Shown here: positions 1 to 38,764 of the stretch, one piece after another
Layout: every line of letters begins with the position of its first letter
Position numbering within the stretch: position 1 is the first letter of the stretch
DNA from: Isurus oxyrinchus
Taxonomy: Eukaryota
NCBI GenBank assembly: GCA_026770705.1
Contig: JANJGN010000006.1
Location: 41,726,001-41,790,000, forward strand
Length of the DNA: 64,000 nucleotides
Reading direction: 5' to 3'
The notes under the pieces: model-generated
The model's input: the letters and a program-made list of their open reading frames with translations, nothing else
What the model was told of the DNA's origin: nothing
Database searches by the model: none
Made by a program: the position numbers and the translations under genes

Positions 1-399
1 GGTCCGTGCAGAGAGCGGGGTTTGAAATGTCCTCTGTTGGAGAAGCTTCTCCAATCCTCTCCCCCTCTGGGGCGTTGCTGCTCCCGGCTACCCGGAGCTG
101 GGGTGCGCTGAGCGCCTCTCTGTTCCCAGATTCCTGGGGTTGTGGTGCACTGGCCTTTTTGGGTTGTAGGCCAAGTTGGGGTGCGCTGGTCTTCTCATTG
201 TCACCAATGTTCTGGAGCTTGGATGACTCGTCCTCCAACTCCCTAGCGTTTTGCCACTTCTTCTGTTGGCGCCGCCCTGGCCCTTCTTCGTCCGAAGAGC
301 TGCTGCTCTTGTTATCCGTGTCGGTTAGGGGACGCCTCTTGACTCTCGTCTGGGAAGTGGCTTGGTTTCTTATTAGCCCCTTCTTCCTTTTGGCTCTCT

Positions 400-1383
400 T
401 CACCAGCTGCCACTCCCCCTGCTGCTTTCCCACTGCTGCCTCCTCCTCCTCTGTTCATTCGCTCTCCTGAGGAGTGGGAGGTTCAGGGGGCAGTGCTGTT
501 GATTGGCTGTCTGCTGCCTCAATTTTTTCCTCCACCTTGTCTCACTCTGTGTCCTCCTTTGTCCCGATGTTTTCCCTGGGGGCCTTGGTGGTTGGTGTGA
601 CACGAGGCATTTCTTCTGCTTCCCCCTCGTTGGCTTAGCTGCCTGTGCATAAGTACGGCAAGGTTTGGGGCAGGTCTTGTAGAGGTGACTTGCCTCGCCA
701 CACAGGTTGCAGCACTTAGCCAGTTTACAATCTTTTGTCTGGTGCCCTTCCTTTTTGCAGTTCTTGCAGAGGACAGCACTGCAATTGGCCGCCACATGAC
801 CAGACTTGCCGCATGAGCGACAAAGTTTGGGTTGCCCAGCGTAGACAAGGTAACCACGGCTTCCCCCGATAGCGAATCTGGAAGGGGGGTGGAAAACGGA
901 TCCCTTACCGTCAGTCTTGAGCGTTACCTTAACCTGGCGTTTACATGTCCAGATCCCCAAATTATCTTTAACTTCAGTGCAGCTCCCAACCTTATCCAAG
1001 TACCTGGTAAGGAAGGTGAGCACATCAGCGACAGGGACGTAGGGGTTGTACAGATGCACCGTCGCAACCCGTTCACGATGCAACGGTAGAACAAAGAGCG
1101 GCTCTACCGTCAGGATCTTCATTTCTGGCAGGTCTTTCTTTTCCTCAAACACCTTCAGGAGTTTGGCACAAGCTACCACTTGCTTGAAGGTCACATCAAA
1201 GAAACCAGCGCTGGGGAAATCCTGTAGGCAGTAGATATCCGCAGCCTCAAAACCACACAGCTTGAATAAGATCCTCTTCGTGAAGAAGGTCCTATCCATT
1301 CCTGTTCCTTGCTCGCTACCCTTCACCATGACTCGGATGGTGTTAGGTACCCCATGGTAAGGGGTTTGCCTGGTTACAGCCAT
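400..1383 (-). pseudogene. Tx1 ORF1 (gag-like, RNA-binding, 3x CCHC zinc knuckle), frameshifted near 636
   Basis: ATG at 1383 (MAVTRQ...). Motifs CRSCGKSGHVAANC, CKNCKKEGHQTKDC, CNLCGEASHLYKTC. Versus copy 2 (GCCAAAGCC) this copy has GCTAAGCC, a 1-nt loss that shifts the frame. Confidence 0.8.
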
Positions 1384-1437
1384 TGCTCTTTCCCTGGCAG
1401 AAACACAATGAAGGTCTCTCCCCTGCCAGGTAAGTAT
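1384..1437 (-). ncRNA. U1 snRNA-derived 5' head of the Tx1 element (fragment, not a U1 gene)
   Basis: Minus strand reads ATACTTACCTGGCAGGGGAGAGACCTTCATTGTGTTTCTGCCAGGGAAAGAGCA-ATG. Vertebrate U1 begins ATACTTACCTGGCAGGGGAGATACCATGATCACGAAGGTGGTTTTCCCAGGGCGAGGC: 24/25 at the start, then 12/15 over GTGGTTTTCCCAGGG. Confidence 0.85.
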
Positions 1438-1867
1438 AAATGTGCACAAGGGCATTTGTAATGAAAATATAAAAACAATATTTTAAAATGAGTATTGAGT
1501 TATGTGGGTATACTCTTGTTCAATATTGTCCACCCTTTAACCTTGCTTCACCAAAAGATATGCTGGTATTTGGCTTTAACTCCCAGTGTGCAATACATGG
1601 GAGATCAGTTATTTTGCCATTGAGTGCAAGCACGCTTTAAAGACTTAGTTGGAATTTATCCATTAATATGCTTCCTATTAACATGATTTGCAGCAACAAA
1701 CATGGTAATATTCACGGAAAGATGTACAATGTACAATGGAGCTTTTAATTTTGGGCACGGTGAGACAACAGGAGCTCCACACCAATCTATTCGCTCCATA
1801 AAGTGATCGTTGCTCTCTACAGGGCTCCTGTCTGGGAGCCTCACTGGTTGATAGTAGGTATCCAACG

Positions 1868-3093
1868 TTACAGTTCAGTGTGTACAATTTATTGTCTATA
1901 ATTGGGTAACTGTGTGCTGTGCAGTGCAGGAAATCAAGGGAGCCGAGACCCAGACTGGCTCAAGGTTAAAAGCAGGGGTTTGGATCCTGCTCCACCCCAA
2001 TTTTGTTGGACCCCCACTGAAGCTTTACATTGCTAGAGTGTATAGTGGAATAATTGTGGCTACACACTGTGGTACACAAATTATTTTCAGAATATGTGTA
2101 TTAGTGATTCATGAATTCCAAAAGAATTAAACTTAAACACACAGAGTTTTGCTCATTTTATGGCCAGTGATATAGAATACAGAAGTTATACGCTAATGAG
2201 TTTATGTAAGGTTTTAATAAAATCACAGTTAGAATACTATGTGCAGCTTTAGGTTTTTCATTATAGGAACAATGTTGAGGCAAAGGGCAGTACAGCACAA
2301 ATTCATTGGAAGTTTCCTGTTGTGAAGAAATAAAAATATGAAACGTATGTAACAAATTGAGGCTGTTCTCAATGTAAATGATTTGTTTACCTAGACACAT
2401 GAGATAGAGTAGATGGAAACAGAGCCTGGTAATTAAAGATCTAAAGCATGAGGATGTACTTATAAAATATTGACACGCTGCTCTCCGCCAGCATTGAAGA
2501 TGAGGATGTTCATGGAGTCATCTTCTCCTGTTTGTTGTTTAATTGTCAACCACCAATTATGCCGGGACATAACAGTTTTGAACTGATTCATTGGTCGTGT
2601 GATCACTTAGGTTTTTCTATACTAGGAGGAGTCAATCAAAGATGGGCCTGCAACACTAGTACTTCAAACAATGCTACCCTGCGAGAGTCGGATCACTGAA
2701 TTTAGCCAATATCCTCTTTTGTTTAGCCCCAGTCACAGTAAGGGAGTGATGGTATGGGTAAATTTCCACTGTACACTTGGATGAATTTCCCCTCTATCTC
2801 AATTGTTCTATATTACTGGCTTAAAATGAGCAAAAAATCTCTGTGTTTTAGTTTAAATTTTTTGGAACTCATGAGTCGCTCATACAGGTATTCTGAGGAT
2901 AACTTGTGTGTTAACATGGTGTGCAGTTACAATTATTTTACTATGCACCCTAGCAATGTAAAGGCCTGACATAACAGGATCCACACCCTCCGTTTTACTC
3001 TGGAGCCAGCCTGGGTCTCGGCTTTTGATTTCCTGCACTGCACAGCACACAGCTGCCCAATTGTGAACAATAAATTGACAGTGAATTTCTGTA
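1868..3093. repeat. Long inverted repeat, arms ~1868-2180 and ~2805-3093
   Basis: GCTGTGCAGTGCAGGAAATCAA (~1916) vs TTGATTTCCTGCACTGCACAGC (~3025); CTTTACATTGCTAG vs CTAGCAATGTAAAG; TTTTGCTCATTTTA vs TAAAATGAGCAAAA. Confidence 0.8.
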
Positions 3094-3204
3094 AATTTCC
3101 CCTGCCCATTGTTGCCCAGACCCTATTTATTTGTGGTGAAAGAGGAGGCCGCATGGTATTATTCTGCTAGTGGGACTGCTTGTGCTGTATTAATGGTAAG
3201 CTGA

Positions 3205-3327
<123 letters not shown>

Positions 3328-3436
3328 TAGCCACTGTGAAATCCACAAGGAAGTACTAATCATTACCATGTTCAGACTTCACTGAAAGTCACTTAATTTA
3401 TCTTTCCATAAATCATAAAATAAAGTTTATAGCAAG

Positions 3437-4219
3437 AAGTTACAGACTAAGAGTAGGCAAAATTGTGACAGATGGATATTCAATGTAGGCAAGTGCGAGG
3501 TTATCCGTTTTGAATCCATGAAAGACAAATGGGAATGTTTCCTTAATCGTAAGAGGCTAACAGCCATAGAAGAACAAAGCCTAGAGCACAAATCATTAGA
3601 AGTTAGTGCATAGGTAGAAGAACTAACCAAAAGGTGAGTGGCATGTTGGCTTTTACCTCAAGTGCGGATTCAGAGATATCAGATACCAGTAATATAGAAC
3701 AAATGAGATACACGCTGAAAGGGTTAAACCGAGGGCTGGTTGCTTAAATAAAAACAAAAAGTGCTGGAAAAACTCAGCAGGTCAGGCAGCATCTGCTGAC
3801 AGAAGCAGAATTAACATTTCAGGCCAAGTGACTTTTCATCTGATGATAGGTCACTCGAGCTGAAACATTAACCCTGTTACTTTCCACAGATGCTACCTGA
3901 CCTGCTGAGTTTTTCCAGCACTTTTTGTTTTTATTTAATCAACCAGCCCGCCCTCAGTTTAACCCTTTCAGCCCTGATATCTCTGAATCTGTACTTTACG
4001 TAAAGACCAACATGCCACTCACCTTTTGGTTAGTTCTTCTACCTATTCACTAACTTCTAATGATTTGTGCACGAGGCTTTGTTCTTCCACGGCTGCTAGT
4101 CTCTCGCGATTAAGGAAACATTCCCATTTGTCTTTCACAGATTCACAATGGACAACCTCGCACTTGCTCACATTGAATATTCATCTGCCACAATTTTGCC
4201 TACTCTTAGTCTGTAACTT
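3437..4219. repeat. ~780-bp near-palindrome: inverted CR1-derived arms around a palindromic Penelope-derived core (~3746-3936)
   Basis: Mirror ORFs 3427..3630(-) and 4026..4250(+) are near-identical. Ends AAGTTACAGACTAAGAGTAGGCAAAATTG / CAATTTTGCCTACTCTTAGTCTGTAACTT. Confidence 0.88.
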
Positions 4220-4689
4220 ACTTACAATGTCTTCTAAGAGTCCTCTATGAACTTGGATATACAATATATTCTTCTATATTCTTTCATCCAGGTTATTATT
4301 ATACACGGTGAAAAGCTAAGGCAGAACAAATGATACATGGGGAACACCGCTTGTCATATCTCTCCAATCTGTCTTCAATTTGTAAATATGACCCTTTTGC
4401 TTAAATTTTAAACTTGACAGAAGAGTTATTACTGGGATATGACCAAAACATTCTGAATATCAAAGACTTCTATCATCTTCCCTCTCTGTCTTCTCAGCAA
4501 AGATAAGTCTCAGGGTATTTTATCTTTACTCCCATGAGTTTGAGGAAGAGATAGTTGCCAGTTCTAAATAGATTACCTTTGACTTCCGGACTTCAGAAAA
4601 TCTGGGTAACTAATCGTCTGATCTTAACAGGCCTCACAGTAACCATGTTCTGTTGTGAATCTGCTATATTCTGAGTGGAAATCCAACAA

Positions 4690-5055
4690 AGCCTCAATTT
4701 TAAATTCCTTATCCTCACATTCCAATCCCTCCATGGCCTCACCTTGCTATCTCTGTAATCTCCGACAACTCTCCAGAATCTGCATTCCTCCAATTCTGGC
4801 CTCCTAGACATCTCCAAGTTTAATTGCTCCATGTTTTGCAGCCATGCCTGAAGTTTTGGGATTCCGCCCCTTAAGCTCTCCGCCTGCCCTTCTCCCCCTT
4901 TAAGATGACCCTTGAACTTTAAGATGACTCTTTGAGCAAGTCTTTGGTCACCTATCCTAATATCTCCTTATGTGGTTTGGTATCAAATATTGATTGATAA
5001 TGCTCTTGTGAAGCACCTTAGGGTATTAAAGACACTATATAAGTACAAGTTGTTT
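4690..5055 (+). mobile_element. L2-like LINE 3' fragment (related fragments ~6700-7000, ~7770-7950, ~9410-9750, ~27357-27800, ~39530-39900)
   Basis: Recurring tail CTTGTGAAGCACCTT...CTATATAA(G/A)T(A/G)CAAGT found on both strands in several copies. Confidence 0.6.
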
Positions 5056-5084
5056 CTGTTTTTGAAAGTTGATTGATGCGTTAA

Positions 5085-5351
<267 letters not shown>

Positions 5352-6294
5352 TAAAACAAACTCAACAGAATGAATGTCCAAGTGCAAACATGATTCCTTT
5401 CTGAGCTGTCCTTCCTCCAGTCAGTGGCTTATGCTGGACTCAGTCCCATAGGTGTCAACACCTCTACAGTATCTCGCTCATTTAGCATGGCAGTTGATTA
5501 TTTTACTGTAGTGCATGTCCGCCAAAGCAATCCTACCCTGGACCGAAACTGACTTACCAGTGGAAGTCGGTACATAGCTACCAGGAGCTGGAGCCCTGGC
5601 TGATTTTGTTTAATGCTGCATCCTGATAGTAGAATGAACTGTCTGTTTGTGTTAACTTATAGCAGGAATCGCCTGTTTAATTAACTGCAACAGCTTTATT
5701 GAGCCTAAAACATACTCGAATATTCACTGTATTGGCTGCTTAACTCATGCAGTGCTAGCTTTGCTCTTTCATTGTGAAGTTAATCCCTTCAACAATCAGA
5801 TCCTTTGCTTTGGCAGTCTATCTCCCAATAGAAGGTAGCAGTGACTGAGTAATTCATTGTTGAAAGTGTACACAGTGGATTGCCTCGACAGCTGTTTATT
5901 AATAAGCTTGCATCAGTTGTATCCAGATCCATCTTGTTGCAGTTTCTGTATTCCTCATTATAAGATCATTTCAGTAATCTTGTAGTCCCAGTAAAGTGGG
6001 GAGTGTGGGTTAGTGAATTGAAGCTACAATGTTGTAGCCCTATCTCTGTGCTGTGCTCCCTTTGAATGGAGCTGCTCAGTGGGATTATACTTGCATGTCG
6101 CCCTGAGAGATAAGATGCCCCATCACAATCCACCCACCTTCATATCTTTTTCCCAATCCTGTATTTCTATAACTAGGGTTAACTTGGAAGAATCATTTCC
6201 CACTTCTGTCTGTTTTATCCAAGAACAGCCACATCAAGTAAAATTGAGCAAATAGATTTATGACCTCAAGAACACTATTCCCCCTTTAACTTAA

Positions 6295-6573
<279 letters not shown>

Positions 6574-8018
6574 TGAGCCCTGCCTCAGTTCTTTTGAGTT
6601 TTAAATTGTTTTGTTAGCACTCTCCTTCAGATCTGGTTGTCCATTTACTGCGAATTTTAGCCTCAAGCCAGCCCAGAATCCCTGCTAACAAGTTCTTACA
6701 ATACAAGTCCATGGCCATGCCTCTCCCTATCTCCGTAACTGCCCCTCTAAAACACTCAGATCTCTGTGCTCCTCCATTTCTGGCCTCTTGCACATCCCTG
6801 ATTTTCATTGTTCCACCATGGGCGACTGTGCCTTCAGTTGCCGAGGCCCTAATTCTGGAATTCCTATTCTCTGCCTTTCTATACCCCTCCTTTAAGATGC
6901 TCAATAAAACCTACCTCTTTTGCTCTTTATCTGAGAAATGTTGTCTGAAGCACCATGGAATCTTTTACTACATTAAAGGTGCTATATTAATGCAAGTCTG
7001 TTTTTAAACCTAGGTTGTACTAGGGTATTTTTGGTATCTTTCCACATGTTTGTAACATAGAGGCGACAGTGTACCTTTATCCTGTTTGTGCCAGGCTCAG
7101 TTACTGCACAATAGCAAGTGGCCAAGTAGTGCTTTTATTATAGCTCTGTGAACTTTGTTTCATTTATTTTGGTGTAAATGAAACTTTGTCAATCAAAACT
7201 GCTTTTGGCTTTGTCATATAACCTGTTCATCAGTCTATCGCTTGGCAACTTGTATATTGTGAAGGAGTTTTCCAGAACTTGTTCAGGTGTGTTACTGGCA
7301 GCAAATCGACTGGTTTCTGCATCTCAAGCTCATAAACTTGTGGCCAATCATGTGCGACTTCCAAAATATGTGGTGGATGTGATTTAACTGTGATAAGATT
7401 CTGTTTATTGAGTCAAAGAGAACACTAGTTTGACTGCTCCCAAGCGATGTTTGAACTGAGAATGAAGGGACTTGGGGCCTCTGATGTTGCCCATGAGTGC
7501 ATTTTTTCTCTGGAACAGAGAGCTGATGGATACAATAGGCCAGATTTTATTCACGTGTAAGTTGTCCAGCATCTAGTGACAAGGAAGAGATGCTCCGTGA
7601 ATTGTGAACCACCACAAACTGCTGGACATGTTGTGCTGCTCCATCATGCTAACCTTGTGAAGATAGCATCTCACCCTCAACCTCCCTATTAGTTTAATGA
7701 AATTCCAACATTTGCGCATTAATTGCCCATTAAACTTGCCAAAAGTGGCTATTCTTTCAGCTGTCTAGTTCTAAACTCTGGAATTTCCTCCATAACTTTC
7801 TCCACCACTCCTGCTTTAAGACACTCCATAAAACCTTCTTCTTTGATCAAGCTTTTGATCAGACCTTATATCTCTGTCTCTAGCTCGGTATCAAATTTGG
7901 TTTCATTACACTCTTTGTGCAGTGCCTTGGGATGTTTTCCTACATTGAAGGCGCTGTGTGATTATGCATTGTTCTTATATGTGTTGCATGTTTTGGCTGA
8001 CAGTGTACTTTGTTACAG

Positions 8019-8267
8019 GAGGTGCCTTCTATACTCCGGAAACAATCGACACTGCCCGGTTGCACTACCGCACTTCCTGGGCCCCAATCTTGCATGCAGT
8101 GGCGCTTTGGTTGAACAACACAGGATTCACTATTGCGTGTGAGACAACGAGTCTGCCAGTTCACAGTGGGCCCAAGAACCAAGCAGGTACCTTTCCAGGT
8201 CAGGCATCTGGAACTTCAAGCAAAACTTTGCAAGAGATCAACACAGACCGACTCCAACTTATTTTTG
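8019..8267 (+). CDS. HEATR5B: HEATR5B internal exon
   Basis: cag|GAGGT...TTTG|gtaag; [32 protein letters not shown]...; phase 1/1 consistent. Confidence 0.93.
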
Positions 8268-8906
8268 GTAAGCCAGTGCATTTAGGGTGATGCACAATGT
8301 CAAATCAAAAGCCTTTGTGCATCTAGGCATGGAATCTTAGAATGGTACTACACAGGAGGTCATTCAGCCCACTATGTTTATGCCAGCTCTTTGATAGGGT
8401 ATTCAATTAATCCCACTCCCTCTGCACTTTGCCCATTGCCCTGAAAATTTTCCCCCTTCCATTGTATATCCAGCTCTCCTTTGAAAGTTACTACAGAATT
8501 GAATGCGCTTTCATCACCCTTTCAGACATTGCTCTCCAGATCATAACGACTTGGTACTTAAAATAATTCCTCCTCATGTCCCCACCCTGGTTCTTTGGCC
8601 AATTAGCTTGAAACTATGTTTTTTGATTATGCAACATTTTGCCAGTAGAAAAAAGTTTCTCCTTATTTACTCTGTCAAATGACTTCATTTTGAACACCTC
8701 TATTACATTTCCTCATAACATTCTCTGCTCGAGGGGGAACAATCTCAGCTTCTCATGTCGCCTTATATAAGTGAAGTTCCTCCTTCCTGGTACCATTCCG
8801 GTAAATTCTCTGCACCCTTCCCAAGAACGCAATTTAAAATTTTTATTTGTTTGTACACTTAAGGAAACTGAGCCTAAGCGAAAGGATTTGGGTCTTGTGT
8901 TTACAG

Positions 8907-9034
8907 GTATCAGTATCGAGTTCCTGTGCTCTCCTCGGCCTGAGAATCCCCTGGAACACGTAACATCTTGCCTGAAGGCTCTTCATACTTTGCTAGACTC
9001 CCGTTGTGCTAGAGCGTACATTGGAGAAGATCAG
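8907..9034 (+). CDS. HEATR5B: HEATR5B internal exon
   Basis: cag|GTATC...CAG|gtaag; [13 protein letters not shown]...IGEDQ. Confidence 0.92.
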
Positions 9035-10359
9035 GTAAGGTGCTAATGCGGAACTTACTGTCAATTCATTAAGTTGCCGTTTGTGCTATAGAGGACAGCC
9101 AATTTTGTACTGAATGATGGTACAGGTTTGAGTTGCCAACCTGTGCTCACAGGGATCTAGATTGAGACCAACAAGTTCATTATACACACAACCCTTGCAG
9201 CTGGTGGGAAAATAATTTTGTCTTATTGGTATGGTCTACATTCCAACACAGATCCTGTAGGTGAAAGAGCTAGGTGTCACCCAGCTAAGCATCCATAACC
9301 AGTGTGCTCAAAAGAGATAACACATTGCATGACTTTATAGAATACATTGTTAATTTGACCATCTGTTTCCCTGTGGTATGTACCCCTCGAAGCAGTATGG
9401 GTCATCCTACAACAACAACTCTGCATTTTTACACCCCCTTTAAGGTAGTAAAACACCCAAAGATACCTCACAAGAGCATTACCAAACTAAATTTGATATC
9501 GAACCAAAGGAGGAAGAAATATCGCTGTTGACTGACTAAAAACTTTGTCAAAGAGATTTTAAGAGGGATTCAAAAGGAGGAAGAAACAGCACTGCAGAAG
9601 TGGAGAGGTTTAGGGAGGGGATTACAGAGCTTCGGGCCTGGACAGCTGTAGGTACAAACACCAATGGTGGATGAAGAAAGTGGGGGATGTACAAGAGGCT
9701 TGAGTTGAAGGAACATGAGAGTTCTTGCAGGGTTGTAGACTGGAGTAGATTACGGAAAAAGAACTCCAACACTAGATGGACTGCAGAGGTTCAAGAAGGC
9801 AGCTCACCACCACCACCTGAAGGGCAATTAGGGATGGACAGTAAATGCTGGCCTAGCCCTCAAAGCCCACGTCGCATGAATGAATAATTTTTAAAAATCC
9901 AAAATCAGCAGCATATTCATGTTAATAGACCTATGATTCATGTTACTCATTAGCTTTTGTTAAGGGGCAGAAAAGCACAAAACCTAAAAGGGATCAACCA
10001 GCAGAATCCATTTACTAATAGAATATCTAATTTCTCACCTGTACTTCAGAGCATTCCAAAACTATAAAAGTCAAGATCCCTTTGAGTTTTCTTCAATACC
10101 TTTGTTATCCAGCCATGACAAGATGCTTTAGGTGAGAAAGGAACTTCAGAGTGCCCTGTGTTAGTCCTTGCAGCGAGATTTAGAATGAACCAGCAATAAC
10201 TCTGATCCAAATTCAGTTTCTCGGTATCCTTTGTAGTTGGTCAAATTCGACCTATGTGAAACATATTTTGCAGTGAAGAACTAATCAATTATCATGTTTT
10301 CACAGATAGCTGTAGTTGATAAAAATGTGCTAGGACTGCAGCTCCATTTTCTTCAATCT

Positions 10360-12198
10360 TACGAACATACGAACAAGGAGCAGGAGTAGGCCATTTGGCC
10401 CTCCGAGCCTGTCCCACCACTTAATAAGATCATGGCTGATCTGACAGCAACCTCAAATCTGCATCCCACCTGCTCCCGATAGCCTGTCACCCCTTGCTTA
10501 CGAAGAATCTATCCACCTCTGCCTTAAAAATATTCAAACGCTTCAACCACCTTTTCAGAGAGTTCCATAAACTCATGACCCATTGAGTGAAAAAAATTCC
10601 CCTCATCTCCATTTTAAATGGGAGACCCCTTATTTTTAAACAGTGACTCCTAGTTCCAGATTCTCCCTCAAGAGGAAATATCCACTCCACATCCACCCTC
10701 TCAAGAACCCTCAGGATCTTATATGTTTCAATCAAGTCGCCTCTTATTCTTCTAAACTCCAGTGGATACAAGTCTAGCCTGTCCAAACTATCCTCATAAG
10801 ATAATCCACCCATCCCAGGTATTAGTCTGAACTGCTTCCAACTCATTTACATCCTCCCTTAGATAAGGTGACCAATAGTGTACACAGTACTCCAGATATG
10901 GTCTCACTAGTGCACTGTATAACTGAAGCATAACCACTCTGCTTTTGTATTCAATTCTCCTTGCAATAAATGATAACATTCTATCGGCTTCCCTAATTAC
11001 TTGCTGTGCCTGCATACTAACCTTTTGCGATTCATACACCAAGACACCCAGATTCCTCTACATCTCAGCGCTCTGCAATCTCTCGCCATTTAGATAATAT
11101 GCTTCTCTTTTACTCTTTGCATCAAAATGAACAATTTCACATTTTCCCACGTTATACTCCATTTGCCAGATCTTTGCCCACTCACTTAACCTATCCACTA
11201 TTAACTCCCCATTTTCACTCGAGAGGACCAACACTCAGTTTACTTACTCTTTTCCTTTTTAAATACCTGAAGAAGCTCTTGCTATCCATTTTTACATTTC
11301 TAGCTAGCTTCCTCTCATGCTCTAATTTCTTTCTCCTGGTTAACCGTTTAGTCATTCTCTGCCATCCTTTATATTCTGACAAATTGTCTGACCTGCCACT
11401 CATCTTTGCACAGTTATATGCTTTTTCCTGAAGTTTGATGCTTTCTTTAACTTCTTTAGTTAACGAAGGATGGTGGGCCTTCCCCTTAGAATATTTCTTT
11501 ATAGTAGGAATATACTTATTCTAAATATTCTGAATTACCCCCTTAAATGTCTCCCACTGCTCCTCTATTGTTCTATCCTCTAGCTTAGTATGCCAGTTCA
11601 CTTCAGCTAGCTCAGCTTTCATGCCCACAAAGTTGCCCTTATTTAAGTTTAAAATGCTAGTCTTAGACCCATTCTTCTCTTTTTCAAATTGCATGCAAAA
11701 TTCAATCATATTGTGGTCACTGCCACCTTGGGGTGCCTTTACTCTGAGGTCACTATTTACTCTAATTTATCCTATCACATTACACAATACCAAGTCTGTT
11801 TGGTTCCAGAACGTGTTGCTCTAAGAAACTATCTCAAACATTCTATGAACTCCTTATCCAGGCTACCATGGCCAATCTGATTTTTCCAGTTTATATGTAG
11901 ACTGAAATCACCCTTGATTATTGCCGTCCCTTTATCACAAGCACCCAATATTTCTTCATGTATACTTTTGTCCTACATTGTGGTTATTGTTAGGGGGCCT
12001 GTAGATCACTCCCACTAGTAACTTCTTTCCCCTGCTATTCCTTATCTCTACCCATACCGATTCTACATCCTGATCTCTTAAACCAATGTTATCTCTCACT
12101 GTTGCACCAGTGCCATCTTTGATTAACAGTGCTACCCCTCCACCTTTACCTAGCTTCCTATTCTTCTTGAATGTCATATACCCCTCAATATTCAGGAC
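10360..12198 (-). mobile_element. CR1 LINE, degenerate, internally deleted (endonuclease part joined to the RT C-terminus near 11200)
   Basis: Minus ORFs with GGGVALLIKD, GVIYRPPN, LYSALVRPYLEYCVHYWSP and RRIRGDLIETYKIL; short tandem tail at ~10361. Confidence 0.85.
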
Positions 12199-17257: not shown

Positions 17258-17595
17258 GTAGGACACATAAAATGCAGCCAAATATTTGGCCGTCACTTTA
17301 TTAATCTTAGTTCCTCCTGGCTGATCCGGTGGAGTTATCTGAGAGCCATACCTCCCTTTTGTCACACACTGCAGCCAGTTAAGAGGGGAACCATTTTTTT
17401 CAATGGATTACCCAACATTCAAAGCCACTCGCTTTCCTTAGCAGCTGACGGCAATGAGATATGGAAGTAAGCAGTGTTTCAAATACTGGGGAAATAGTGT
17501 GTCAGGACAAGACTTTGTACAGGTGATCCCAGTGATTTGAAAAGATTAGGAATCCAAGTTGATAATGGGCATCAAGCAGCACTGAGATCATGCAA

Positions 17596-18105
17596 GGGCA
17601 CACTGGGATCCGGATTGATGGCGAGGGCACACTGGGATCCGGATTGATGGCGAGGGCACACTGGGATCCAGATTGATGGCAAGGGCACACGGATCCAGAT
17701 TGATGGCGAGGGCACGCTGGGATCCGGATTGATGGCGAGGGCAGGCTGGGATCCGGATTGATGGCGAGGGCACGCTGGGATCCGGATTGATGGCGAGGGC
17801 ACGCAGGGATCCGGATTGATGGCGAGGGCACACAGGGATCCGGATTGATGGCGAGGGCACACTGGGATCCGGATTGATGGCGAGGGCACACTGGGATCAG
17901 GATTGATGGCGAGGGCACACAGGGATCCGGATTGATGGCGAGAGCACACTGGGATCCGGATTGATGGCGAGGGCACACTGGGATCCTGATTGATGGCGAG
18001 GGCACACTGGGATCCGGATTGATGGCGAGGGCACACTGGGATCCGGATTGATGGCGAGGGCACACTGGGATCCGGATTGATGGCGAGGGCACACTGCGAT
18101 CCGGA
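17596..18105. repeat. 29-bp minisatellite, ~17.5 copies
   Basis: Unit GGGCACACTGGGATCCGGATTGATGGCGA; the 29-aa periodicity of the spurious minus ORFs confirms the unit length. Confidence 0.97.
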
Positions 18106-19695: not shown

Positions 19696-22159
<2,464 letters not shown>

Positions 22160-23350
22160 TTGTCTCAAGCACTAAAGCAGGAACTAAGCCAAAAGAAAAG
22201 TGCCTCTATTTCTATAGCTCATTTCACAGTCTCAGAATGGCCAAAGCCCTTTACACTTACTGAATTACTTCTATAGTCACTGTTTTAATGTCGAAAACGA
22301 GGCAGGCAATTTGTACACATCAAGCTCCCATAAGGAGAATTGATATAATGATCCGATTATCTGTTTTAGTGATGTTTGTTGAGGAATAAATATTGACCAG
22401 GATTCCAGCTCTTCTTCAGATAGTACTGTGAAATCTTATACTTGACCTGACCGGTCAGATGGGACCTTAATTTAAAATTTCATCTGTCAGACAACAACAG
22501 TAACAGTGCAGCACTCCCTCAGTATTGGCACCAAGGGCGTCAGGCTGGATTTTGTACTCAAGTCTCTGGAGAGGAACTTGAACCCATAGCCTTCTGATTC
22601 AGAGCTGAGAGAGCTAGCCACTGAGCCATGGCTGGCATCTAACAATTACTTAACTAGTCTCAAGTGCTTCTGTCATTTGCCCATGGGTTTCATCTGACTA
22701 AAGGCTTCATTCAGTCTAATTTAGGATTGTCGCAGTTTCTATTTTGTACATGTTGAATGCAGAACTATCTGTAGTTTAAAGCCTTTCCTTGGGAGATTTA
22801 CCCTGTCCAGTAAGTGGTCTCCATTCTCTATGTTGTGAGTTCTCTTTGAGAACAATGCTAGGAACCACTGGGCTCTACAGCTTTGAGCTTTCAGTATTCT
22901 TAACACAGGTTGATTACCTACTATTGTTTTGAGACTTATACAAAGTTTAGTGAGCTTTCATCAGAGACTTGGTCCTTTTTCACATTAACCCTGCAGCTGG
23001 TGCTGGAATAATCACAGGCCACTGACATCAATAAATTCAACAGCTTTAGAAAATAGAATTGCCATCCTTTCATCAGGGATTGGTGTCGCTTCGAGAATTA
23101 ACGTGGCTTTCACTTTAGTCATTCAACACTACAGTAAATTTGCATTGGGCCACTTTTGGTCCACTATTCTAATTACATATGTATATCTGTACTTATGAAA
23201 TCTGAACTGTTCTCAGAACATGGTAGGAGAAGTGGGATAATTTTATATTGCTCGTGTTGCTGGTTAATTGCCACTCTGGCAAATGAAAGCTAATGATTCA
23301 ATTTGGTTCCCTAATGGGAAAAGTTAAAGGATCTGTATCCAAGGGTGATT

Positions 23351-29842: not shown

Positions 29843-31915
29843 AAGAGTTTCTGAAATGTGTTCAGGAAAATGTTCTTGATCAGTATGTTCCAGCCCAATG
29901 AGGAAGGAGGCATTGCTGGATCTGGTTCAAGGGAATGAGGTGGGACAAGTGGATCTAAGGTCAGTGGGAGAATGTTTAGGGAACAGTTGTCATAGTATCA
30001 TAGAGTTTAGGTTAATCATGGAAAAGGACAGGGAGCAAGTCGAGTAAAAATACTTAATTGAAAGTGGACCATTGCAATGGGGTAAGAATGGAACTATCCC
30101 AGGTAAATTGGATTGAAGGATTGAGGAGTAAATGAGCAATGGTCTGCCATTGAAGAGGAGGTGATACAGAACACTTGAAGTACATTCTTTCAAGGGGGAA
30201 AGGCAGGGAAATCAACGACAGATCTCCTTGGATGATGAAAGAGATTATCAGAGTAAGTTGAAATAGAGTGCATATGACAAATGTCAGTTGATAGTATAAG
30301 TAAGGACCCCATGCTGAATATAGACAGTTCAGAGGTGAAGTGAAAAAGAAGATAAAAGAGGCAAAGACAGAGTATGAGAAGAGACTGGCAACAAACATAA
30401 AGGGGAATCCAAAAGTATTTTACAGGCATATAAGTAGTAAAAGGGTAGTAGGAGGACTGGTGGAGCACATTAGGATTCAAAAAGGAGAAACTACGAATGG
30501 AGGCAGAGGGCATAACTGAGATACTAATTGAGTATCATGCATCTCCCTTTACTAAGAAGGATTCTGCCCAAGCCTTAGTGAAAGGGGGAGTAGTTGAGGT
30601 ACTGTAACAACTAAAAATTGATTAAGAGGAGGTATTGGATAGGCTGGCTTTGCTTAAAGTTGATAAATGGATGAGATTCATCCAAGGACACTGAAGGAGG
30701 TAAGGGTGGAAATTGCAGAGGTGTGGGTCATAATCTTCCAGCCCTCCTTAGATACAGGGGTTGTGCCAGAGGACTGGAGAATTGCAAGTGGTAAACCTTT
30801 GCTCAAACAGGTGTAAGGATGAACCTAGCAACTACAGGGCAATCAATTTAAACTGCATGGTGGGAAGGCATTTAGAAATGATAATTCAGGACAAAATGAA
30901 GTCATTGGATAAGTGCGGGTTAATTAAAGAAAGCCGGCACAGATTTGTTAATGGTAAATCATGTTTAACTGAACTAATTGAGTTTTTTGATGAGGCAACA
31001 GGGAGGGTTGATGAAGGTAATGTAATTGATGTGGTGTATATGGATTTCCAAAAGGCGTTTGATGAAATGCCATTTAAGAACATAAGAACAGGGAGCAGAA
31101 GGAGTCCATACAGCTCATTGAGCCTGCTGATCTTAGGCTACCATTCCACTTTCCCACCGGCTTCCCATATCTCTTAATTCCCTGGGAGACCAAAAATCTG
31201 TCTATCTCAGCCTTAATTATATTCAATGATGTCACATCCACAACTCTCTGGGGTAGAGAATCCCAAAGATTCACAACCCTTTGAGTGAAGGAAATTTCTC
31301 ATTTCAGTCCTAAATGATCAGCTACTTATTCTGAAACCATGCCCCCTTGTTCCCCATCCAGGGGAAATAACCTCTCAGTATCTATCCTGTCAAGGCCCTT
31401 TATAATCTTGAATGTTTCAATGAGATCACCTTGCATTTTTCTAAATGCCAGAGAATATAGACCCAATTTACTCAGCTTCTCATCATAGGTGAACCTTCTC
31501 ATCCCACCAATTTAGTGAACCTTTCCCTGTACTGCCACCAATACAAGTATATCCTTAAATATGGAGACCAAAACTGTATGTAATATTCCAGGTATCGTCT
31601 CACCAAAGCCATGTATAATTGTAGCAAAACTTCTTTATTCTTGTACCCCAATCCCTTTGCAATAAATGCCAAATTGCTTTCCTAATTGCTTGCTGTACCT
31701 TCGTGCTAACTTTTTGTGTTCCTTGTGAGAGTACACACAAGTGTCTCTGAACATTTTTTTTTTGCAAAAATATACTTTATTCATAAATCTTCAAAAACAT
31801 TTCGAACCATTTCAAATCACCATTACAAAAATACAAACAGGTTCAACTTTTACAACATGAACAAACAATGAATATTTCAATCATTGGCAGACATTTATTT
31901 TAATCCTGTCTCTTT

Positions 31916-33052
31916 ATGGGGTATGTGGAACATTCCTTGTTGCAGTCCTACTCCAGCCCCCTTCCACAACTTTTTCTCCGGTACATCGATGATTACTTCG
32001 GTGCCGCTTCATGCTCTCGTCGGGACTTGGAAAAATTTATTAATTTTGCTTCCAATCTCCACCCCTCCATCATTTTCACGTGGTCCATCTCTGACACTTC
32101 CCTTCCCTTCCTTGACCTCTCTGTCTCAATCTCTGGTGATAGACTGTCCACCAATATCCATTACAAACCCACCGACTCCCACAGCTACCTCAACTACAGC
32201 TCCTCACACCCCGCTTCCTGTAAGGACTCCATCCCATTCTCCCAGTTCCTTCGCCTTCGTCGCATCTGTTCCGATGATGCTACCTTCAAAAACGGTTCCT
32301 CTGACATGTCCTCCTTCTTCCTTAACCGAGGTTTTCCACCGACGGTCGTTGACAGGGCCCTCAACCGTGTCCGGCCCATCTCCCGCGCATCCGCCCTCAC
32401 GCCTTCTCCTCCCTCCCAGAAACATGATAGGGTCCCCCTTGTCCTCACTTATCACCCCACCAGCCTCCGCATTCAAAGGATCATCCTCCGCCATTTCCGC
32501 CAACTCCAGCATGATGCCACCACCAAACACATCTTCCCTTCACCCCCCTTATCGGCATTCCGTAGGGATCGCTCCCTCCGGGACACCCTGGTCCACTCCT
32601 CCATCACCCCCTACTCCTCAACCCCCTCCTATGGCACCACCCCATGCCCACGCAAAAGATGTAACACCTGCCCCTTCACTTCCTCTCTCCTCACCGTCCA
32701 AGGGCCCAAACATTCCTTTCAAGTGAAGCAGCATTTCACTTGCATTTCCCCCAACTTAGTCTACTGCATTCGTTGCTCCCAATGTGGTCTCCTCTACATT
32801 GGAGAGACCAAACGTAAACTGGGCGACCGCTTTGCAGAACACCTGCATTCTGTCCGCAAGAATGACCCAAACCTCCCTGTCGCTTGCCATTTTAACACTC
32901 CACCCTGCTCTCTTGCCCACATGTCTGTCCTTGGCTTGCTGCATTGTTCCAGTGAAGCCCAACGCAAACTGGAGGAACAACACCTCATCTTCCAACTAGG
33001 CACCTTACAGCCTTCCGGTCTGAATATTGAGTTCAACAACTTTAGGTCGTGA
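31916..33052 (+). CDS. Penelope RT C-terminal half plus GIY-YIG endonuclease (5'-truncated, uninterrupted 378 aa)
   Basis: LRYIDDYF, LPFLDLSV, YKPTDSHSYL; Cys linker CPRKRCNTC; VYCIRCSQCGLLYIGETKRKLGDRFAEH; terminal PSGLN. Confidence 0.88.
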   Translation: MGYVEHSLLQSYSSPLPQLFLRYIDDYFGAASCSRRDLEKFINFASNLHPSIIFTWSISDTSLPFLDLSVSISGDRLSTNIHYKPTDSHSYLNYSSSHPASCKDSIPFSQFLRLRRICSDDATFKNGSSDMSSFFLNRGFPPTVVDRALNRVRPISRASALTPSPPSQKHDRVPLVLTYHPTSLRIQRIILRHFRQLQHDATTKHIFPSPPLSAFRRDRSLRDTLVHSSITPYSSTPSYGTTPCPRKRCNTCPFTSSLLTVQGPKHSFQVKQHFTCISPNLVYCIRCSQCGLLYIGETKRKLGDRFAEHLHSVRKNDPNLPVACHFNTPPCSLAHMSVLGLLHCSSEAQRKLEEQHLIFQLGTLQPSGLNIEFNNFRS

Positions 33053-33440
33053 GCTCCCTCCCCCATCCCCACCCCCTTTCTGTTTCCCCCTTTTTCCTTT
33101 TTTTTTCCCTATAAATTATATAGATTTTTCTTTTCCCACCTATTTCCATTATTTTTAAACATTTTAAAATCTTTTATGCTCCCCCCACCCCCACTAGAGC
33201 TGTACCTTGAGTGCCCTACCATCCATTCTTAATTAGCACATTTGTTTAGATAATATCACCAACTTTAACTTTAACACCTATGTGTTCTTTTGTACCATTG
33301 TCGCTGACATCTTTTGATGATCTGCTTCTATCACTTCTTGTTTGTCTACACAACCACCTCTCTCTCTCTCTATCTCTCCGCCCCCCACACACACACCTTA
33401 AACCAGCTTATATTTCAACTCTTTCTTGGACTCGAAATCA

Positions 33441-33479
33441 AGTTCTGTCGAAGGGTCATGAGGACTCGAAATGTCAACT
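33441..33479 (+). ncRNA. Minimal type I hammerhead ribozyme-like motif in the Penelope 3' repeat (mutated core)
   Basis: AGTT-CTGTCGA-A-GGGTC-atgag-GACTC-GAAA-T-GTC-AACT: stem I, CUGANGA-like core, stem II, GAAA, GUC cleavage triplet. Confidence 0.6.
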
Positions 33480-33672
33480 CTGTTCTTCTCCGCCGATGCT
33501 GCCAGACCTGCTGAGTTTTTCCAGGTAATTCTGTTTTTGTTTTGGATTTCCAGCATCCGCAGTTTTTTTTTTTGTTTTTTTTGTTTTTTTTTGTTTTTAT
33601 TTATTTTAATCTGTACAGCCTGAGGGGCTCTTTACAGTTCCCAGTCCCTCAGTGCACTGTGGCAGAAAGGTC

Positions 33673-36600
33673 TTAGGCAGCGACCCTTCCCCATTGCGCC
33701 TTTGCGGCGGCTGCCCCAAGCTTAACTGTGTCCCTCAGCACGTAGTCCTGGACCTTGGAATGTGCCAGTCTGCAACACTCGGTCGCGGACAACTCCTTGC
33801 GCTGGAAAACCAACAAGTTTCGGGCAGACCAAAGAGCGTCTTTCACTGAGTTGATGATCCTCCAGCTGCAGTTGATGTTTGTCTCAGTGTGTGTCCCTGG
33901 GAACAGCCCGTAGAGCACAGAGTCCTCTGTCACAGAACTGCTCAGGATGAACCTCGACAGAAACCACTGCATCTCTCTCCAGACCTTCTTCGCAAAGACA
34001 CAATCTACAAGGAGGTGAACAACGGTCTCTTCCCCACCACAGCCACCTCGAGGGCAACATGCAGAGGGGGTGAGACTCCTGGCGTGTAGGAAGGATCTTA
34101 CAGGGAGGGCCTTTCTCACCACCAGCCAAGCTACATCTTGGTGTTTGTTGGAAAGTTCTGGTGATGAGGCATTCTGCCAAATGACTTTGTCGGTCTGCTC
34201 AGGGAATCATCCCACAGGATCCACCCTCTCCTTTTCCCTCAGGGCCTTTAAGACGTTACGTGCCAACCACTGCCTGAAGGACTTGTGGTCGAAGGTGTTT
34301 CTCTGCATAAATTTTCCCACGAGGGACAGGTGGTACGGCACAGTCCAACTACTTGGAGCGTTCCGCGGCATCGTGGCCAGACCCATCCTTCGCAACACCG
34401 GGGACAGGTAGAACCTCAGCATGTAGTGACACTTGGTGTTTGCATACTGAGGGTCTACTCACCGCTTGATGCAGCCGCACACAAAAGTGGCCATCAGTAT
34501 GAGGGCGACGTTAGGCATGTTTTTTCCCCCTTTATCTAGAGGCTTGTACATCGTGTCCCTGTGGACACGATCCATTTTCGACCTCCAGATAAAGCGGAAG
34601 ATGGCTCGGGTGATCGCCACCACACAGGAATGTGGAATGGGCCAGACCTGCGCCACGTACAGCAACAGCGAGAGTGCCTCACACCTGATGACCAGGTTCT
34701 TACCCGCAATGGAGAGGGAGCGTCGCTCCCACATGCCCAGTTTCCTTTTCACCATAGACACTCGCTCCTTCCAGTTTCTAACGCGTACCCTGGTCCCTCC
34801 GAACCATATCCCCAGCACCTTCAGGCCATCAGCCCTGACAGTGAAGGGGACAAAGGATCGGTCAGCCCAGTTCCCAAAGAACATGGCCTCGCTCTTCCCA
34901 CGATTTACCTTGGCTCCCGAGGCCAGTTCGAACTGGTCGCAGATGTGGATAAGTCTGTGCACCGACAGCGGATCCGGGCAGAAGACGGCGACATCGTCCA
35001 TGTACAGGGAGACTTTGATCTGAGTGCCTCCACTACCTGGGATCGTCACTCCTCTTATGCCCGGATCCTTCCTGATGGACTCAGCAAAGGGTTCTCTGCA
35101 ACACATGAAAAGAACAGGCGAGAGAGGGCAGCCCTGCCTGACTCCAGATTTAATAGGAAAGCTATCTGATTCCCACCCATTGATTGAGACTGCATTACTG
35201 ATGTTAGTGTAGAGCAGTTGGATCCAATTGCAAATTCCCTCCCCAAACCCCATTTTGGAGAGCACATCCACCATATAGGTGTGTGATATTCTGTCAAAGG
35301 CCTTCTCCTGATCCAGGCTGATGAGGCAGGTATCCACACCCCTGTCCTGTACATAGGCAATCGTATCCCTGAGCAGCACGAGGCTGTCAGAGATCTTCCT
35401 GCCCGGCACAGTGCAGGTCTGGTCAGGGTGAATCACCAATTCCAGAGCGGATTGGACCCGATTGGCGATGACCTTGGACAGAATTTTATAGTCCACATTC
35501 AACAGTGAAATGGGTCGCCAATTTCTAATTTCCTCCCTTTCCCCCTTGTGCTTGTAGATGAGGGTGATAATGCCTTTCCTCATGGATTCTGACATACTGC
35601 CGGCCAGGAGCATACTCTCGTACTTCTAGCAGGTCTGGGCCGATCCAGTCCCACAGAGCCAAATACAGCTCCACCGGCAAGCCGTCGCTTCCGGGAGTTT
35701 TACTCTTCTCGAAGGACTCAAGGGCCTCAGTCAGTTAGTCAGGAGTTAGTGCTTTGTCCAGACTCTCCCGTGTACTGTCATCTAAGACCTCCGTGATAGA
35801 GGACAGGAAGGACTGGGAGGCCGTGCTGTCTGTGGGCTTCACGTCATACAATCCGGCATAGAAGGATTTGCTTATCCTCAAAATGTCAGATTGCAATGAC
35901 TTAACTGAGCCGTCTTCTTCCTTCAGGCTGCTGATCACAGAGCTCTCTCTGTGTACCTTTTGGAAGAAGAAACGTGAGCACGTCTCATCCTGCTCTGCTG
36001 AGCAGACTCTGGAACGGAAGATGATCTTGGAGGCCTCCGAGGCAAAGAGCGAGGCTTGCTGGCTCTTCACCTCTTGGAGTTCCTCCTTGATATCGACCCC
36101 CATCGACCGCAGCCAGAGCAGGTTCTGCATGTTTTTCTGGAGTCGGGGCATTTCCCTCTGTTCCTTTCTAGCTTTCTGGGTGCCTTTGAGGACGAAAAAC
36201 CTCTTGATGTTTCCCTTGATCGCTTCCCACCAGTGTGTCAGGGACTCAAAGTGGGGTTTCATGGTTCTCCAACCTTTGTAATCCCTCTTGAGCTCTTCAA
36301 TGTCTCTGGGGTCAGCAGTTGCACGTTTAGCTTCCATGCCCCCCTGCCAACCCTCTGGTCCTTCTCTAAGTGACAGTCAGCCAGTAGGAGGCAGTGGTCA
36401 GAGAAGAACACCGGCTTGACGTCGGTGGATCTGACTGTGAATGCACAGGACACAAACAGGAAATCTATCCTGGAACAGACAGACCCGTCAGGCCGCAACC
36501 AGGTGTATCTACGCTGCGCTCCGTCTGCAGGGTTGCTGAAGACGTCATGCAGCTTGGCATCATCAGGGATCTGGATGTAGCATCCAATCTGCTGTCGGTC

Positions 36601-37064
36601 CTGCCGGATCGTCCAGCCACATCGATGATGCAGTTGAAGTCACCGCCCAGAATGACTGGCCTGGAGGTTGCCAGCAGCAGTGGGAGCTGCTGAAGAATCT
36701 CCAGCCGCTCAGCCCCTTGTGGCGGGGTGTAGACGTTAATTAAACGGAGTGGAGCATTCTTATACATTACGTCTGCTACGAGGAGGCGCCCGCCCACCAC
36801 CTCCTTAACCTGGGAGACGGTGAAGCTGCCTCCCCACAGCACAATCCCCAGGCCGGAGGAATGAGAGTCGTTTCCTCCCGACCAGATCGATGACCCATGG
36901 GACCACCATCGTAACCATTGCCTGTAGGAGCTGAGGTGCGGTATCGCACACTCCTGTAGAAACAGCAGGTCAGCTTTGACCTTGGCAAGGTATTCCATGG
37001 TCATAACACATCGCGTAGTAGATTTAATGCTACGCACATTTATGGACACAATCTTTACACCCAT
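33673..37064 (-). pseudogene. Tx1 ORF2 (APE endonuclease - RT - CCHC finger), several frameshifts and stops
   Basis: SINVRS, LQE, LGGDFNC, SRIDFLFV, FSDH; NWRPISLLNVDYKIL, LDQEKAFD, GVRQGCPLSP, YMDD; CPRGGCGGEETVVHLLVDC. Confidence 0.93.
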
Positions 37065-37074
37065 TTTAACGCAG

Positions 37075-37850
37075 TTAGTCGCTTACCAAACCTGTTGTCT
37101 CTGAGAGTTCCTTCATGCCCGTGGTGTGCTCAAATTGCTTCACTTGGGATGGGCTGAGGAAAGCGTCCTGAACCTCCCCATTGGAGATGTTCTGCTCGGG
37201 TGGCATCTGGGGGTCCGTGCAGAGAGCGGGGTTTGAAATGTCCTCTGTTGGAGAAGCCTCTCCAATCCTCTCCCCCTCTGGGGCGTTGCTGCTCCCGGCT
37301 TCCCGGAGCTGGGGTGCGCTGAGCGCCTCACTGTTCCCAGATTCCTGGGGTTGTGGTGCACTGGCCTTTTTGGGTTGTGGGCCAAGTTGGGGTGCGCTGG
37401 TCTCCTCATTGTCACCAATGTTCTGGAGCTTGGATGACTCGTCCTCCAACTCCCTAGCATTTTGCCACTTCTTCTGTTGGCGCCGCCCTGGCCCTTCTTC
37501 GTCCGAAGAGCTGCTGCTCTTGTTATCCGTGTCGGTTAGGAGACGCCTCTTGACTCTCGTCTGGGAAGTGGCTTGGTTTCTTTTTAGCCCCTTCTTCCTT
37601 TTGGCTCTCTTCACCAGCTGCCACTCCCCCTGCTGCTTTCCCACTGCTGCCTCCTCCTCCGTTCTCTCCTGAGGAGTGGGAGGTTCAGGGGACAGTGCTG
37701 TTGATTGGCTGTCTGTTGCCCCAATCTTTTCCTCCATCTTGTCTCTCTCTGTGTCCTCCTTTGTCCCGTTGTTCTCCCTGGGGGCCTTGGTGGTTGGTGT
37801 GACACGAGGCATTTCTTCTGCTTCCCCCTCGTTGGCTTTGGCTGCCTGTG
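37075..37850 (-). pseudogene. Tx1 ORF1 C-terminal half (acidic/basic low-complexity), open frame
   Basis: 245-aa ORF ending 10 nt before the ORF2 ATG at 37064; in frame with AQAAKANEGEAEEMP at the truncation point. Confidence 0.8.
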
Positions 37851-38764
37851 CAAGTGTCTCTGAACATCAACATTTAAAAGTTTCACATCTTTCAAAATAT
37901 TGTGCTTTTCTATTCTTACTACCAAAGTGAATAGTGTCACACTTCCCCACATTATATTCCATCTGTCATCTTGTTGCCCACTCACTTAACTTGTCTATAT
38001 CTCTTTGCAGTCCCTCTGTGTCCTCCTCACAGCTTGCATTCCCACCTAGCTTTGTATCATCATCAAACTTAGATACATTACTTTCTGTCTCTTCATCTAA
38101 CTCATTAATATGGATTATAAATAGCTGAGGCTTCAGCACTGATCCTTGTGGCAGTTACAGACTGCCAACATGAAAATGCCCATTTATCCCTACCCTCTGC
38201 TTCCTGTCCTTAATAGACTTGTCAGCGAAGTTGACGCCCATGGATTAAAAGGGAAAGTGGCAGCATGAATACGAAGTTGGCTGAGTGACAGGAAACAGAG
38301 TAGTAATGAAAAGTTGTTTTCAAACTGGAGGAAGGTGTATAGTGGGGTTCCCCAGGGGTCGGTGTGGGGCCCAGAGTCTTTCTTGATCTATATTAATCAC
38401 CTAGACTTGGGTGTACAGAGTAAAATTTATGGGTGACACAAGAATTGGAAATATTGTGAACTGTGAGGAGGATAGTGGTAGACTTCAAGGGGTCATAGAC
38501 AAGCTGGTGGAATGGGCAGACACATAATAGATGAAGTTTAATACAGAGAAGAGTGGAATGATGCGTTTTGGTAGGAAGGATGTGGAAAGGCAATACAAAA
38601 TACAATTCTAAAGGGGGTGCAGAAACAGAGGAACCTGGAGGTTTATGTGCACAAATCATTGAAGGTGGCAGGGCACTTTGAGGAAGCAGTTAATAAAGCA
38701 TATGGGACCCTGGGCTTTATAAATAGAGGTGTATAGTACAAAAGCACGCAAGATATAATGAACC

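Follow-up and report, generated by a model that had tools for sequence, protein, structure and literature searches.

A U1-headed LINE family of the shark Isurus oxyrinchus with insertions in U1 snRNA genes and a likely dependence on U1 promoters

Tx1-clade LINEs that begin with small nuclear RNA (snRNA) sequence have been described in crocodilians. In Kojima 2015 (PMC4494074), a U1 head is reported for the families Tx1-2_Crp, Tx1-2B_Crp and Tx1-4_AMi and a U2 head for Tx1-11_Crp; the heads were attributed to template switching, and the transcription of the SINEU elements was left open, with upstream promoters suggested. The crocodilian Tx1-Mar families are reported to prefer a Mariner element or LTR elements as targets and not U1 genes (PMC4494074). 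Keno, also of the Tx1 clade, is specific for U2 snRNA genes (PMC4640811), R2 is co-transcribed with the 28S rRNA (summarised in Kojima 2015, PMC4494074), and Dada-U1 DNA transposons insert in U1 genes with a duplication of 6-7 bp (PMC3706591, PMC8869645). A LINE targeting U1 genes was not found in the open-access literature; Repbase, the subscription literature or the PMC4494074 supplements may contain one. In view of PMC4494074, a U1 head on a Tx1 LINE is not new in itself; an earlier note on the present DNA had cited such crocodilian heads for SINEU only.

The LINE family found in Isurus oxyrinchus shares with Tx1-Mar a coding Tx1-type body with a U1- or U2-derived 5' end and tandem insertions around a duplication, and by eye its U1 site resembles the SINEU-3 duplication (PMC4494074). 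It differs from Tx1-Mar in its U1-gene insertions, promoter-linked copies and read-through transductions, and from the short (<500 bp), non-coding SINEUs in its length of 5.2 kb and its two ORFs. As with Keno and Utopia (PMC4640811), an AP-endonuclease LINE is located in a Pol II snRNA gene near the 5' end of the gene. In contrast to Keno, the main target seen for the shark family is U1 (more than 14 places, versus two at U2 38/39), and 98-99 of 100 sampled insertions are elsewhere; the 5' part of the target travels with the element, and the specificity is weak (1-2 of 100). Dada-U1 is a DNA transposon with another U1 site and an unrelated mechanism. R2, in outline, offers a likeness in having no promoter of its own and relying on transcription of the target gene, where co-transcribed target sequence may aid integration; it differs in its endonuclease type and its ribozyme, and the shark family in the putative use of an snRNA promoter read by Pol II and in progeny that are for the most part dispersed. 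R2 is transcribed by Pol I.

The window, that is the whole stretch of 64,000 nucleotides that was analyzed (assembly GCA_026770705.1, contig JANJGN010000006.1, positions 41,726,001 to 41,790,000), contained the following features. Numbers beginning with L denote loci of this genome.

From 1437 down past position 1, minus strand: Tx1-type LINE copy (L062), total length 5212 nt
1411..1437, minus strand: head (element nt 1-27), equal at every position to the first 27 nt of the host U1 variant L033
1384..1410, minus strand: remainder of the 5' UTR, element nt 28-54, consisting of U1 28-31, a 6-nt deletion, diverged U1 38-56, where the target-site duplication of an ancestral U1 insertion is expected, and some bases of UTR proper to the element
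1..1383, minus strand: ORF1, ATG at 1383-1381, premature stop at 400-402, 328 aa in the window copy
1438..1453, minus strand: upstream target-site repeat, 16 nt with a further 3 nt of microhomology, not U1-like
31754..37852, minus strand: second copy of the same family, 96% identical, 5'-truncated from about element nt 789, headless
About 31906-33602: GIY-YIG-bearing retroelement, an insertion that splits the second copy within its 3' UTR

The earlier note had placed the start of the element at U1 +1, with U1 likeness beyond the first bases and the ATG after only 54 nt. All of this was confirmed: the head agrees over 25 nt with the commonest host U1 variant and over 27 nt with L033, diverged U1 38-56 follows, and the 5' UTR (1437-1384) measures 54 nt. 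The head was identified by comparing it directly with U1 genes of the same genome (Rfam RF00003 search, 42 scored matches, 30 examined, 28 compared). The Rfam route proposed in the note was unproductive, as the 54-nt head was not reported in a scan of window 1-12000. The window copy ends in a short polyA and has a target-site duplication of 16-19 nt, with one mismatch to the repeat behind the polyA. Neither a U1 promoter upstream of this copy nor U1 downstream of its 3' end was present, as the note had stated for promoter and remaining U1.

Exons of a HEATR5/Laa1-type gene were observed on the plus strand at window 5139-5318 (PF20210, E 7e-16) and 6322-6555. Both LINE copies are antisense to this gene, L062 lies upstream of those exons, and the window copy is probably within an intron. 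The insertion at about 31906-33602 matched PF01541 with an E of 4e-4, below the cut-off, and is presumably a Penelope-like element. Tandem arrays with units of about 58 and 49 bp were detected by self-BLAST at 17592-18105 and 19930-22163, and an imperfect long palindrome (81%) at 3437-4219, with two sub-threshold Rfam matches, is probably an inverted repeat pair.

The exact 27-nt family head occurred 161 times in the genome (reversed-pattern control 0) and the exact family 3' end 1008 times (control 0; this pattern also catches relatives), which makes about 16% of copies 5'-complete by exact-pattern counts. Using window 1150-1480 as query, 39 of 39 non-self matches among the best 40 of 954 began within -3 to +7 of U1 +1. 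By eye, the upstream flanks of the 29 non-self copies examined were unrelated. With such varied flanks and 161 exact heads, the head is a family-wide trait. Further characterization was performed on 41 dispersed head-bearing copies, 40 of them with a 3' end. An adjacent target-site duplication of 11-21 nt was observed in 29 of 40, and no duplication was found within 1-1.9 kb in four of the 40 full-length copies. Both ORFs were open in one of 40. Pairwise identity had a maximum of only 96.6% and a median of 94.5% (694 pairs), so that the transposition burst is past.

ORF2 of the family encodes an AP-type endonuclease and a reverse transcriptase (PF03372, PF00078, PF13966) and is L1-like, with LINE-1 ORF2p as the closest solved-structure match (E 2e-82). 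The separate ORF1 contains two ZCCHC3-type RNA-binding domains and a CCHC knuckle. The closest homologs of ORF1 are named from other sharks (58-84%). Judged by its coding content, the element is an L1/Tx1-type LINE, the Tx1 label being drawn from its domains and from a named homolog, the Danio 'transposon TX1 uncharacterized 149 kDa protein' (38%, E 1.5e-169). PolyA tails were uniformly 7-12 nt long, with a mode of 9, at 100 sampled 3' ends, as if templated in the source and not added by polyadenylation. Head-to-tail tandem copies separated by a duplication were seen at L063, L111, L141/L226/L227, L189, L224, L278, L339 and L352. Six to seven of the 100 sampled 3' ends ran into pieces of the same element, sites thus being used repeatedly.

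In a sister family, with about 80% identity in ORF1 and 64 exact matches, comparison with RF00004 genes showed the 5' end to be U2 1-37. A near-identical short core before the ATG is common to this sister and to older U1-headed copies; about 10 nt of the element's own UTR were thus kept across the swap of the heads, both of which begin at snRNA +1. Retention of the body while the whole leader was exchanged for the 5' end of another snRNA at its +1 is most simply explained by an element without a promoter. In two places a member of the group is followed by U2 38/39 onward, one of them with a U1-family-type 3' end. A copy linked to a U2 promoter was observed neither among 30 of the 64 U2-headed loci nor in six further stretches, which counts against this explanation. 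At C29:0.17-1.13 Mb a linked cluster of U1 and U2 genes is located, and the spacer of its repeat unit holds an internally deleted U2-headed element.

These features probably belong to a LINE family with a U1-derived head that inserts in U1 genes before nt 37-40, likely lacks a promoter and has sources likely transcribed from the adjoining U1 promoter. When an ancestor inserted before U1 nt 40 with a duplication of 17-18 nt, U1 1-57 would have remained on its 5' side and turned into the head. Transcription by Pol II would begin at U1 +1, and the capped element RNA would at times extend past the element into the U1 remainder. With an endonuclease of loose specificity, about 98% of the copies would end up silent at random positions. 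The rare full-length copies landing in a U1 gene would be joined to it by way of the head that both have in common, and could then serve as new sources.

Insertion at U1 genes, which the earlier note had raised as a possibility, was observed directly. In L077 the polyA is joined to U1 nt 40. A pattern of an A-run and U1 40-53 had 14 genome matches (control 0), and the 3' end of the family group preceded the polyA in 14 of 14; some of these loci are mutual duplicates, and the independent events are estimated at about 11. A gapped junction pattern gave 27 matches, namely the 14 known, one further copy, 11 duplicates of an old insertion and one (L279) that proved not to be the element. The 11 duplicates are units at C21:86.9-87.7 Mb (L267-L277) in which an old related element is joined to diverged U1 36/40-164. 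Junctions lie before U1 nt 37, 38 and 40; duplications of U1 40-56 flank a truncated element piece in L126 and L130, and U1 37-50 is duplicated in L224. The three registers and the different duplications indicate repeated cutting within U1. Insertion before nt 40 with duplication of 40-56 predicts a 5' flank of U1 1-57, matching the head, and older heads are nearer to this prediction, with 32 of 32 positions equal to L033 in L128 and L224.

An explanation of the junctions by mostly one ancient insertion, propagated through read-through and homology-primed reverse transcription with no true U1-specific cutting, is unlikely. It would fit the nt-40 register common to most junctions, the uniform, seemingly templated polyA and the several loci that are duplicates of one another, but not the differing registers and duplication lengths, the 5'-truncated copies in situ in U1 loci, the presence of both 3'-end types at U1 or the two insertions at U2 nt 38/39.

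Repeated insertion into U1 is real but rare, since only one or two of 100 insertions were in U1. One of 100 sampled 3' ends was followed by U1 40-164 and one by U1 38-46, at the same locus, and 98-99 of the 100 insertions were outside U1; the sample comprised the first 100 listed, on contigs C1 and C2 only, and the U1 clusters of C26 and C29 lie outside these. The 3' flanks of the 100 copies were nearly unrelated to each other (three pairs), with no common repeat target evident. Dispersed target sites showed no U1-like motif (0-7 of 16 identities to U1 40-55). This weighs against the proposed reading. Guidance by the head is disfavoured, as U2-headed-type 3' ends were found at U1 and U1-headed-type 3' ends at U2, in truncated or rearranged copies.

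Copies with an upstream U1 promoter were searched for with a natural promoter-linked locus as query; the best 40 of 330 candidates were scored and 10 opened. L220 consists of about 590 bp of U1 promoter, a decayed head, a full-length element, polyA, U1 40-164 and the 3' box, and its upstream region is 90% identical to that of the U1 gene L033. L221 and L222 contain promoter, partial element and U1 remainder, and L126 promoter, decayed U1 5' part and ORF1. In L131 the distal promoter is present, the proximal part and the head are deleted, and the element runs from nt 62, with 800 bp of U1 gene flank. In all five loci the head or its vicinity is damaged. No young intact promoter-linked copy was found by the exact-pattern search or among the best 40 of 330 candidates, which counts against the source model; the exact pattern of promoter end and young head had one match, L061, which is without upstream U1 promoter similarity. 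As observed in L220, L126, L222 and L230, decayed promoter-bearing U1 loci are far more mutated at nt 1-32 than at nt 40-164; for promoter-linked loci the difference was 25/96 versus 22/375, in a small selected set of three. Selection against the source may have caused this decay, or else mutation associated with the start of transcription.

In dispersed copies that begin at +1, a single duplication was found to enclose U1 40-164, the 3' box and additional flank of the U1 gene as well. A 21-nt duplication encloses the whole unit in L077, with 384 bp behind the polyA, and a 14-nt duplication encloses element, U1 40-164 and U1 gene flank in L128. L127 has an L077-like layout with no duplication found, and L226 has an L033-like flank and no U1 part. 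Two source flanks can be distinguished, one in L077/L127/L225, which resembles the U1 gene L033, versus one in L128/L278. The variant matching the head at nt 20-29 was present in only one of 20 promoter-bearing U1 loci, L033. This locus is empty in the assembly and its flank differs by 11-14% from the transduced flanks, which counts against L033 itself; we therefore infer an earlier L033 allele or a lost paralog as the source. Second-generation transposition from a dispersed copy was considered and rejected, as the A-run in the transduced flank that had suggested it belongs to the natural L033 flank. Promoterless full-length U1 copies were also noted (L035, L047, L049-L052, L057, L058); 3' box flank and apparent duplications occur in several of them, and they are taken as retrocopies of U1 precursors.

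The copies found with a U1 promoter upstream (L220 and others), those with U1 at the 3' junction (14) and the transductions, together with the cap-like G described below, directly support the proposal of the earlier note that a coding LINE is read from a U1 promoter, with a source in a U1 locus and copies dispersed. In a tree of 59 rows (one omitted as too short), promoter-linked or U1-transducing copies are spread over all levels, basal and youngest ones included, and the dispersed copies are star-like; support is weak, with 33 of 56 inner branches open and the bootstrap not settled. Given this weak tree and the four of 40 copies without a duplication, some dispersed copies may also act as sources. 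Assembled contigs of three presumed RNA runs cover 29 of 30 bins, and such contigs carry no start, strand or level.

If the head had been captured once in a U1 gene and an L1-like internal promoter had since been gained in the head or ORF1, dispersed copies would also be sources and U1 insertion a mere side effect. The 16% of 5'-complete copies, the predominance of insertions outside U1 and the lack of a young intact promoter-linked copy in the search would agree with this. Nevertheless it is rather improbable, as only about 10 nt of own UTR survived a head swap in which both heads start at snRNA +1, the sole 3' transduction traced among 40 full-length copies came from a U1 locus, and the tree, weak as it is, is star-like.

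Under the promoter-borrowing model, transcripts would begin at U1 +1. Among 57 distinct 5' ends, 33 were at +1, and a G precedes 22 of these 33 at -1 (background 21.5%, p=3e-8), as it does in six of nine U2-headed copies. The U1 promoter has C at this position, not G, and the extra G is what a capped RNA with its start at +1 would leave. A G at -1 is readable as the copied cap, known from L1-type insertions.

Alternatively, the head could be added afresh at many insertions, by reverse transcription that switches template from LINE RNA to the capped U1 snRNA as it finishes, with some other promoter in use; Kojima 2015 proposes this for the 5' additions of SINEU (PMC4494074). Such a switch would also yield the cap G and, inside U1 nt 1-21, which are the same in U1 variants, would be invisible, and recurrent U1 additions are described for SINEU-2 (PMC4494074). 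Family-specific letters at nt 24-29 were, however, present in 40 of 40 heads (part of the set picked by pattern), L033-type nt 24-27 in all 30 BLAST-picked loci, and the matching variant at nt 20-29 in one of 20 promoter-bearing U1 loci; promoter-linked copies and U1 gene flank inside a duplication are left unaccounted for, and we regard this explanation as very unlikely. A one-off snRNA-LINE template-switch chimera is ruled out by the 161 exact heads and the fixed junction.

The head was predicted to pair nt 4-19 with its 3' part (nt 28-54 region). The predicted unpaired probability of nt 3-11 was 0.13-0.59 in 40 copies versus 0.79-0.96 in four U1 genes. The hairpin is not unusually stable (z -1.6 to -2.6 against shuffles; -2.7 for U1's own 5' part). 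A bolder version of the U1-promoter reading, possible though doubtful, is an obligate parasite of snRNA promoters that hops between U1 and U2, is tethered by position about 37-40 nt past the Pol II start, is renewed only by the 1-2% of copies landing there, and hides the bases that bind 5' splice sites in its head hairpin. If so, the tether would be the snRNA transcription machinery, acting by position rather than DNA sequence, and the remodelled hairpin head would keep the element RNA from acting as a rogue U1.

The shark genome supplies intermediates that had been missing: a U1 promoter in front of some copies, transductions of the U1 remainder by read-through, and the signature of a cap at +1. 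They bear on the transcription problem of SINEU-type elements, which arises from the position of snRNA promoters outside the transcribed part (PMC4494074). As far as the literature searched goes, U1 genes are an addition to the targets of LINEs. The life cycle would be of the source-sink kind, with the few targeted copies sustaining a family that is otherwise mostly dispersed. Both a 5-kb coding RNA made from an snRNA promoter and an AP-endonuclease finding snRNA genes are now testable.
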